Shown here in pieces: positions 29,801 through 32,685 of a DNA stretch of 64,000 nucleotides. Position 1 is the first letter of the stretch; each line of letters opens with the position of its first letter. The notes beneath the pieces were generated by a model. The model was not told where the DNA came from. It worked only from the letters and a program-made list of their open reading frames with translations, and searched no databases. The stretch covers positions 4,416,001 to 4,480,000 of the forward strand of contig CM000151.3 in assembly GCA_000004695.1 (NCBI GenBank). The letters are read 5' to 3'. Made by a program: the position numbers and the translations under genes. The DNA is from Dictyostelium discoideum. Lineage: Eukaryota.

Positions 29801-32685
29801 TTTAGCAGTTGTTGTATTTGATGAACCAAATAAAGAAGTTGAAGTTGATGATTTGCTAGCATCTCCAAATATTGATGGTGTAGTTGTAGCTGTAGTTATT
29901 GTTGAGCTAAATAATGAAGAAGACGTAAGAGATGTTGTTGGTTTTGAGAATAAACCTTCTGTTGTTGGTTTTGTTGAAAAAATACTTGCTGTTTTTGAAT
30001 CTTTATCAGTGGTGGTAGTTGTTGGTCCAAATAATGATGTTGATGTTGATGATGATGTGAAAGATGGTATTGAGGTTGTTACTGGTGAGGTAGATTTATC
30101 AGTACTTGATTTATCAGCACTTGATTTATCGGCACTTGATTTATCAGTTGTTGGTGGTGATGAAAATAATGATGATGATGATGATGATGATGCGGTGGTG
30201 GTGGTTGCTAATGGAGTTGTAGTTGAAACACTAAATAATGTTGTTTCAATTGGTTTAATACCACTAAAATTGAATAAACCACTTGGTGGCTCTATATTTT
30301 TTAAACCTGGTACATCCAATGGTGTATCTTCATTCTCTAAACCTCTCTTTTTCTTTTCATATGGTGCTGATTTATTTATTGATGTAATATCTTTTTTAGC
30401 GATTGGTGATGATTTTGATGTTGATGTTGATGATGATGTTGATGTTGATACTCCATTAATACCTATAAAATCTGTTTTTGAAACTGTAGTTGCTAAATTT
30501 TTAAATGGATTAACACCACCACCGTCATTCTCTTTTGAGAATAGATTTGATTTATTTGAATCTGATGTAAACATATTATCCAATTTCTTTTCGTTACCTG
30601 ATGATGATGATGATGTTGATGTTGATGTTGATGGTGAAGAAGTTGCAATTGTTGTAGCTGGAGTTGCACTAAATAATGATGATGCTGTTGCTGTATTTGT
30701 GGAAGCTGCAGAAGAAGTTGTTGAAAATAATGATGATGATGGTGGTGATGAAGTGGTTGTAGTTGTAGTTGTATTTGATGAAATTGTAGCTGGTTTTGAT
30801 GAGAATAATGATGATGATGATGATGATGATGATGATGATGATGATGATGATGATGATGATGATGATGATGATGATGATGATGATGATGTATTTGCTACTG
30901 TTGCTGTTGTAGTTGTAGTTGAAGGTGTTGCATATGTCTTAATTGGTTCAGTTGATTCATCTTCAGATTTTTTATTTAATGGTTTCTTATATAATGATAC
31001 TGATGATGTAATTGAATTGGTTGGAATTTCTAATCCTAAATCTTTATTTGATTTTGGTTTCTTTTCCTATTTAGAAAATTAGAGAGAAAAAAAAAAAAAA
31101 AAAAAAAATTAGTAAAATTAATAAAAGTTGACAATTTTTTTTTTTTTTTTTTTTTTTTTTTTAATATACATACCAATAATTTACTTAAACCATATGGATT
31201 ATATTTATAATTGATAGAAATTTGAGGGATTTTAATTTTTGGTCTATAAACTGATGTTGGTGGTTGATAAGTTGAATCGTTACCATTGTAAAGAGACTGT
31301 GATGATGGAGCCATTGTTGATGATGGATTATAATGAGCTAAAACTGGATTTGAAAATGAATCTAAATGTTCTAAAATTCTTTTAGCTGCTTGACTAGTTG
31401 CCATCATAACTGAATTATCTGTACCATCAGCATTTGGTAATCTCTTTTTTAATGGTGGTTGTTCAATTTTAGAATTTGGGGAATATATCTAAATTAAAAA
31501 TTTAAAATTAATATAAATATAATATTTATTATTATTATTATTATTATTATTATTATTATTATTATTATTATTATTATTATTATTATTATTATTATTATTA
31601 TTATTATTATTATTATTATTATTATTATTATTATTATTATTACTTACAGATTGTCTGTTATAAATACTTTGATTATCATTAATATTACTATTATTATTAT
31701 CGTCAAATTGTTTTCTCTTTGATAGAATTGAAGAACTATTAATTATTGAACTTTCAAATGGAGAGGCATTAAAAGTTGAAGAGATTGGTTTCTTTTTAAA
31801 TTGTGAATTTGAATAAATTGTATTATTATTTGTAATCTTTAAAGTGGTTTGAGTTGGTGATAAATTATTTTTTATATTTCTACTACTATTAAATGTTGAT
31901 GCATTTGCATTTATTCGGTCTTGACTTAAATTTGGATATAATGAATTTATATTGGTTTTTAAGATTGATGTAGTAGCTGTTGTTGTAGTTGTTGGTTTTT
32001 TATCATTATTTGTTACACCACCGATTGCAACTGATTTCTTTGGGACAGCTGCTGCTGTTGTGGTGGTTGTGGTAGTTGTTGGATTTTGATCCTTCTTTAA
32101 AATTGGTTTATTATCTAATATATTTTTATTTGAAATATTAGTTTGGTAGGAACGAGTTAAATCTGCTACTGAAAGTGATGATGTATCAAAATTGATACCT
32201 GATGGTACTTTAACTTTTGATAAATTACTATCATAATCATCAGAAATATTTATTTTATTATTATTATTATTATTATTATTACTATTATTGTTCTGATTAT
32301 TTGTGTTATTATTACTATTACTATTACTATTACTATTATTATTATTATTATTATTATTTATATTAGTGGTGGTGGTTGATGATCCTTTTTGTGGTATATT
32401 ATTACCATCATCATATGATGATGATGATGATGATGATGATGATGATGATTCATCGAAATTTGAAAACATCCATTGAAGTGGTTTAGATAATAATTTTGAA
32501 ACCATATTTTTAAAGAATCCAGCCTTATTTGTTTGTTGATTATTTGGTGGTGATGATGAACCATTCATTAATAATGAACCATTCTCACTTTCATCTCTTT
32601 CACTGTTTATAGTATTTCTATTATTTCTACCTGATGTTGAATATGGGTTATACGCAGTTTGATTTTGTCTGATTCTACCGTTCAT
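26899..32685 (-). CDS. FG/GLFG-repeat nucleoporin-like protein, large multi-exon gene with one unresolved frame break near 29234-29352. Proposed exons: 32685..31648, 31488..31174, 31066..about 29300, about 29300..26899
   Basis: ATG is at 32685, with an in-frame stop two codons upstream. Exon 1 ends at CAATCT|GTAAGT (31647). The intron is almost pure (AAT)n and ends tttaatttAG at 31490/31489, after which the frame continues (IYSPNSKIEQPPLKKRLPNADGTDNSVMMATSQAAKRILEHL...). The second donor is TTATTG|GTATGT at 31173, and the 107-nt intron ends tctaaatAG at 31068/31067. The open frame then runs through poly-Ser into the track ORF 29234..30583 (whose track M at 30583 is TTG). That ORF contains SLFG/GLFG/FG repeats, acidic EFYVPPDSDEE repeats and a KKRKKKRE NLS-like block. 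It overlaps the +2-frame ORF 26899..29349, which carries dozens of PSTGLFGS, SLFG and SPFGAP repeats and ends NPFGNFGAVPANGFSLGKMGTSKKPAKKK. Confidence 0.5.
30809..30888. repeat. (GAT)n, encoding poly-Ser (TCA)n on the minus strand inside the FG-repeat gene
   Basis: A perfect GATGAT... run of about 80 bp. The minus-strand gene frame, checked codon by codon against the exon-2 frame, reads TCA. Confidence 0.8.
31518..31640. repeat. (ATT)n/(AAT)n microsatellite of about 120 bp, proposed to be intronic
   Basis: A perfect trinucleotide run lies between the GTAAGT donor (minus strand, 31647) and the tttaatttAG acceptor (31489). Confidence 0.8.

Follow-up and report, generated by a model that had tools for sequence, protein, structure and literature searches.

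Introduction

In Dictyostelium genomes, AAT ranks among the repeat motifs of highest abundance (bioRxiv 10.64898/2026.03.01.708701), and statements on Dictyostelium microsatellites are found in a general review (PMC9234386). Our literature searches returned general statements of this kind and none on the gene described here. The gene lies on the minus strand of a window of 64,000 nucleotides (the whole stretch of DNA analysed) from Dictyostelium discoideum (assembly GCA_000004695.1, contig CM000151.3, positions 4,416,001 to 4,480,000 of the forward strand). The window is 76% A+T, with an actin gene of the usual Dictyostelium type and a large number of Asn-rich open reading frames (ORFs). A preliminary description of this DNA proposed that the poly-Asn tail of one of these ORFs is an intronic (AAT)n microsatellite, and that this ORF and the next one form a single gene.

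Our analysis indicated that the segment 31647..31489 is very probably a conventional GT-AG spliceosomal intron of phase 0, the first of two, and that the two ORFs belong to one gene. The host is an FG-repeat nucleoporin-like gene of about 1840 codons with two introns (32685..26899, minus strand). It shares its FG region with the FG-repeat nucleoporins (PF13634): about 800 residues at the C-terminus of its product matched Nucleoporin_FG in 10 stretches with an E-value of 2.9e-47 and a score of 159.9 bits (cutoff 32.2), whereas a Pfam search with the product of exons 1 and 2, the N-terminal 450 residues, matched no family. The features of the gene, all on the minus strand, are as follows.

32685..31648, minus strand: exon 1, starting with the ATG at 32685, 346 codons, ending ...SIYNRQS, the N-terminal non-FG part
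31647-31642, minus strand: 5' splice site GTAAGT of intron 1, phase 0, after the codon TCT, identified by matrix score and conservation
31642-31526, minus strand: perfect (TAA/AAT)39 microsatellite of 117 nt, poly-Asn in a naive reading
31525-31489, minus strand: non-repeat 3' tail of intron 1, 37 nt, AAATATTATATTTATATTAATTTTAAATTTTTAATTTAG, ending at 31489
31512-31507, minus strand: candidate branch site ATTAAT, with the putative branch A 19 nt from the 3' end
31491-31489, minus strand: TAG whose AG (31490-31489) is the predicted 3' splice site, the first AG after the donor
31488..31174, minus strand: exon 2, 105 codons, IYSPNSKIEQPPLKKR...GLSKLL, with its first ATG only at 31407
31173-31067, minus strand: intron 2, GTATGT...AAATAG, 107 nt, phase 0
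31066..26899, minus strand: exon 3, FG-repeat region (SLFG/GLFG/PFG), with the stop at 26899

Sequence and anatomy of intron 1

The GTAAGT donor at 31647 was found exactly where it had been described, at the start of the (AAT)n run, and the acceptor AG closes the TAG at 31489. The naive ORF (32685..31489, 398 codons) ends with 52 codons that consist of VS, 38 Asn and KYYIYINFKFLI, followed by the TAG, and the same frame reopens at 31488 for 150 codons, of which the first ATG is reached 27 codons on, at 31407. Removal of the 159 nt (3 x 53) joined ...NDNQSIYNRQS to IYSPNSKIEQPPLKKR... in frame and without a stop, as had been claimed for the junction of SIYNRQS with IYSPNSKIEQ. The predicted junction peptide of the spliced product is ...QSIYNRQSIYSPNSK..., while the read-through product would end ...INFKFLI. 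The poly-Asn tail and the TAG behind it would not be translated from the spliced mRNA.

Intron 1 contains three G and no C, and as a consequence the acceptor is the only AG within it past the AAGT of the donor itself. In the 3' tail the final acceptor G is the sole G or C (GC 2.7%), and the tail holds a partly conserved block, ATTATATTTATATTAATTTTAAA. The intron had been described as made almost entirely of (AAT)n; the perfect repeat is indeed present, but it accounts for 117 of the 159 nt (74%). The ATTAAT in the tail is tentatively placed as the branch site. Most of the control introns, which were 14 other introns of the window recognised via ORF continuity, have YTAAY motifs ahead of their 3' splice site, but such motifs are common by chance in AT-rich DNA.

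The in-frame TAG at the acceptor, which had been pointed out as a distinctive feature, is present but not special, as it follows from the phase of the intron and the base before its AG. A T at position -3 was found in 9 of the 14 control introns and also in the orthologous introns of the two other species compared below, and any phase-0 intron with this T places a TAG in the frame of the downstream exon. That the TAG is also in the frame of exon 1 is an accident, since the length of the intron is a multiple of three, the repeat is read in AAT phase and the tail is free of stops.

Composition, coding potential and splice-site scores

The base composition shifted exactly at both proposed splice sites of intron 1. 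The GC content was 25.7% in exon 1, 1.9% in intron 1 and 10.3% in intron 2, and the 81 nt that lead from the TAG to the first ATG (29.6%) were nearly identical in composition to the remaining part of exon 2 (29.5%). Coding potential was measured as a codon log-odds score of the other long ORFs of the window versus its ORF-free DNA. The 27 codons in front of the ATG at 31407 reached +25.2 bits in their own frame, against -14 and -42 bits when read in the two alternative frames; the in-frame score is above the median of coding windows (19.4) and is reached by 0.35% of the non-coding windows. For the 12 codons that separate the repeat from the TAG the score was -8.6 bits, which is below 99.5% of the 12-codon coding windows. 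The coding signal breaks off at the donor and picks up again precisely at the acceptor, where there is no start codon.

Position matrices were built from the 14 control introns, whose donors were GTAAGT, GTATGT or GTAAxT, whose acceptors were TAG or AAG, and which were 66-246 nt long with a GC content of 2-15%. The donor of intron 1 scored 10.4 bits (top 0.25% among 5271 GT sites) and its acceptor, TTTTTAATTTAG, scored 9.1 bits (top 0.64% among 4408 AG sites). The pair 31647-31489 ranked first among the 271 GT..AG pairs that preserve the frame and remove the TAG. Two further arguments were dropped. GTAAGT was found 16 times in the window against 19.5 +/- 4.2 expected, showing no enrichment, and the purity and length of the repeat did not serve as a criterion, as other (AAT)n runs of the window, just as long and as pure, are coding.

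Comparison with orthologous loci

The locus was identified in the sister species and in D. purpureum through the neighbouring Mdm34_N-like gene as a synteny anchor; the actin neighbour was also tried as an anchor and gave paralogous loci only. The loci compared were those of a second assembly of the same species (L001; GCA_054883475.1, JBTAPE010000033.1), of the sister species 'Dictyostelium cf. discoideum' (GCA_054859205.1) and of D. purpureum (GCA_000190715.1). The loci of Tieghemostelium lacteum and Cavenderia fasciculata were not syntenic and hence silent on the age of intron 1.

In the sister species, the exon borders were identical to those of the window, ...AACAGACAATCT at the end of exon 1 and ATATATTCaCCAAATTCT... 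at the start of exon 2, and the intron between them (15867-15961) consisted of GTAAGT, (AAT)12, an AT-rich tail and TTAG, 95 nt in all. In D. purpureum, exon 1 ends ...SLYKSNK and is followed by an intron of 71 nt, GTAAGT...TTGTATAG, which ends in TATAG and contains no AAT repeat, and exon 2 begins DEDDSNPPLKKRISDENSVMLATSQAAKRIL.... Exons 1 and 2 are in different frames in both species. Because neither 95 nt nor 71 nt is a multiple of three, the flanking ORFs can be joined only through splicing. The spliced product of the sister species (introns of 95 and 107 nt) was an uninterrupted frame of 1896 codons, and the public gene call there is a protein of 1896 aa whose genomic span exceeds its coding sequence by 202 nt, that is 95 + 107, which represents the same two introns.

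Alignment of the spliced proteins of the window and D. purpureum was conserved on either side of the junction, with exon 1 aligned over its full length. At the protein level, D. purpureum retains PPLKKR...SVM(M/L)ATSQAAKRIL, a segment that extends to both sides of the supposed start Met at 31407.

In the comparison of the window with the sister species, all indels in exon 1 (3, 3, 9, 54, 12, 9 and 3 nt) and in the first 600 nt of exon 3 (9, 18, 105, 15, 3 and 96 nt) were multiples of three, and the only one in exon 2 was 6 nt, whereas the introns differed by 72 and 8 nt (intron 1, the 8 nt in the non-repeat tail) and by 2, 3 and 5 nt (intron 2). Of the eight substitutions in exon 2, seven were synonymous and one was non-synonymous. 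This pattern is the classical signature of an exon-intron-exon arrangement. The earlier suggestion that an intronic repeat can vary freely without constraint to multiples of three proved weak, as slippage alters a trinucleotide repeat by threes at any location; it is the 8-nt indel of the tail that is informative. The repeat has 12 units in the sister species and none in D. purpureum; L001, which is of the same species and 99.46% identical to the window, has the same 39 units.

Taken together, the splice-site scores, the coding potential, the orthologues in the sister species and D. purpureum and the 1896-aa gene call bore out the proposal that the poly-Asn tail is intronic and that the two ORFs are one gene.

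Evidence against a single spliced gene and alternative explanations

Several points weigh against a single gene spliced at 31647 and 31489. We infer its splicing in vivo from sequence. Among exon-side contexts of the donor, TCT|GT is not the most frequent one. The gene calls on L001 (5001-10785) split the locus into a protein of 398 aa and one of 1467 aa starting from the ATG at 31407. This split is a prediction rather than data and conflicts with the splice-site, coding and comparative evidence, and it is probably a mis-annotation, made easy by the open frame of an intron with a length of 3n. Searches with the spliced product in a set of 5.8 billion proteins and in 1.84 billion representatives gave zero matches, so that support for the junction is limited to the loci fetched by synteny, with no other independent homologue. 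Those searches missed even the protein of the species itself and the D. purpureum orthologue and are thus uninformative; masking of the source species, filtering for composition bias, or both, probably account for the empty result. An exact-sequence look-up of four candidate gene products found no match in the collection, and a scan of metagenome contigs with a pattern covering the spliced junction and the unspliced boundary of exon 1 and the intron gave 0 matches. The naive 398-aa product was recorded in a contig look-up, but not in a cluster look-up.

The better of the alternatives is that the intron is real and is often or conditionally retained, so that the unspliced mRNA would yield 346 aa with a poly-Asn tail and without FG repeats. 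The read-through frame is open through the whole of intron 1 down to the TAG, and splicing could be slowed by the great length of pure repeat that separates the donor from the branch site. The open read-through is, however, not conserved, since the orthologous introns of 95 nt and 71 nt give an out-of-frame product, and for this reason no selection for a retained isoform is visible. A retained transcript, with its stop ahead of intron 2, would also be a probable target of nonsense-mediated decay. We regard retention as very unlikely. The same slight chance is given to its regulated form, which would exploit a state of the intron found only in D. discoideum (length of 3n, open frame, stop exactly at the acceptor TAG) and in which retention would produce an FG-less nucleoporin fragment with a prion-like tail of 38 Asn, and the length of the repeat would tune the efficiency of splicing.

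The least probable arrangement is that of two genes, one whose 398-aa product would truly end in an Asn38-KYYIYINFKFLI tail and another for a separate FG nucleoporin starting from the ATG at 31407: many long (AAT)n tracts of the window are truly coding within long ORFs, and the gene calls on GCA_054883475.1 follow exactly this model (398 aa + 1467 aa), but the supposed spacer is 81 nt of coding-like sequence (+25 bits, GC 30%) with no room for an AT-rich terminator or promoter, the read-through is out of frame in the sister species and in D. purpureum owing to a length difference that is not 3n, the residues PPLKKR...NSV in front of the Met are kept as protein in D. purpureum, and the codons of the tail score as non-coding.

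Proposed history of intron 1

Intron 1 is old, as D. purpureum has it at the corresponding position. The AAT repeat within it has expanded in the D. discoideum lineage, presumably by replication slippage, along a series from no repeat in D. purpureum through 12 units in the sister species to the 39 units found here. The expanded repeat occupies a part of the intron that is free of constraint, with the 5' splice site on one side and the tail with the candidate branch site and the 3' splice site on the other. The AAT phase of the repeat, the stop-free tail and the 3n length, all of them chance features, together produce, in a six-frame reading, a poly-Asn tail that ends at the acceptor TAG.

Further features of the host gene

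Three blocks of the protein stand out as strongly conserved in D. purpureum. The first, near the N-terminus (window 32460-32530), reads GFFK(N/T)MV(S/N)K(L/I)LSKPL(Q/K)WMFS; in this block, GFFKNMVSKLLSKPLQWMF may resemble the N-terminal amphipathic helix of basket nucleoporins of the Nup153/Nup1 type. The second (window 31330-31450) reads PPLKKR...ATSQAAKRILxxLDSFSNPVL, and the third, IPQISINYKYNPYGLSKLLEKKPKSNKD (window 31174-31260), straddles the junction of intron 2. Intron 2 is 107 nt long in the sister species, and its poly-A is 4 nt shorter in L001 than in the window (region 31135-31162).

In exon 3, the window lacks a single A near 29262 and a single C near 29248, both of which are present in L001. 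The resulting frameshift splits the FG exon into the ORFs 31066..29237 and 29358..26902 on the minus strand. It is absent from both L001 and the sister species, which have one unbroken ORF each. The frameshift is either a sequencing error of the assembly or specific to the strain. Otherwise, length differences between L001 and the window were confined to homopolymer or low-complexity tracts of introns and intergenic DNA, for example between 33297 and 37176.

Significance for annotation

Public gene models of two related species already imply the orthologous intron, and the assignment is correct, but it is not new biology; nothing is added on splicing or on the biology of microsatellites. The value lies in the annotation, which gives one FG nucleoporin-like gene of about 1840 codons in place of a 398-aa poly-Asn protein and a truncated nucleoporin, and at least one public set of gene calls for the same species makes the error of splitting it. 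A practical rule also emerges for gene models in this genome: where (AAT)n directly follows GTAAGT, and an AT-only tail and a TAG come no more than a few dozen bases behind it, the run should be taken as intronic, even with an open frame. A microsatellite intron is unsurprising here, because a homology-proven example lies 7 kb away, in a Grx5-like gene, and the AAT motif is abundant.

Comparison with related repeats and introns

The nearby example is the gene of a Grx5-like monothiol glutaredoxin on the plus strand. Its intron at 38295-38540 (246 nt) starts with GTAATT, ends with TTAG and consists mostly of (ATT)45 followed by (ATTTATT)n. The spliced product (...REAVKEFG|...) matched PF00462 Glutaredoxin over the full model (E=5e-18) and aligned with yeast Grx5 (PDB 3gx8; E=1.4e-29) with no gap across the junction. 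Introns built largely of an AAT-class microsatellite thus demonstrably exist in this genome. Like intron 1 of the nucleoporin-like gene, this second intron of the Grx5-like gene is mostly AAT-class repeat, and its repeat is much shorter in the sister species; unlike it, the repeat is ATT in the sense strand, the donor is GTAATT, the phase is 2 and an in-frame stop follows immediately. Because this stop stands directly after the donor, the Grx5-like intron cannot be mistaken for coding sequence.

Other repeat-bearing introns were also observed in the window. The first exon of the Grx5-like gene (37801-38675, plus strand) is apparently the ATG alone (37801-37803), by analogy with a 140-aa gene call in the sister species. 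The intron behind it (37804-38004, 201 nt) contains (AAAT)n and (AAT)20, and the repeats of both Grx5-like introns are far shorter in the sister species. On the minus strand, the intron at 42381-42481, between an ORF of 5578 codons (59214..42481) and the next exon, begins GTAAGTAAAAAATAATAATAATAAATAATAAATAATAATAATAA, with AAT-like repeats beside the donor. Within the giant ORF itself (59214..42481), several (AAT)n tracts, with 31 units at most, are truly coding.

As the preliminary description had remarked, several poly-Asn tracts of the window are coding; they are (AAT)n runs inside long ORFs, such as those at 6740-6820 (27 units) and 46215-46308 (31 units). These tracts have the same unit as the repeat of intron 1 and a similar length and purity. 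They sit, however, in ORFs that run for hundreds of codons on both sides, whereas the repeat of intron 1 is followed by about 11-12 non-coding-like codons and then a stop. The tract of intron 1 has no coding flank downstream, and its frame shifts in the sister species and in D. purpureum. Unlike the coding tracts, it is bracketed by splice sites, and the length of the segment changes between species by amounts that are not multiples of three.

Intron 1 has the donor, the acceptor and the restored coding frame of a GT-AG (U2-type) intron, and in the orthologues its borders are kept around an interior that varies freely. It resembles the short AT-rich GT-AG introns of Dictyostelium in its GTAAGT donor, AT-rich body, TAG acceptor and phase 0, and its length of 159 nt lies within the range of 66-246 nt. 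It differs from the control introns of the window in having the lowest GC content (1.9%), in consisting to 74% of one perfect repeat, and in having a length of 3n with no in-frame stop before the acceptor.

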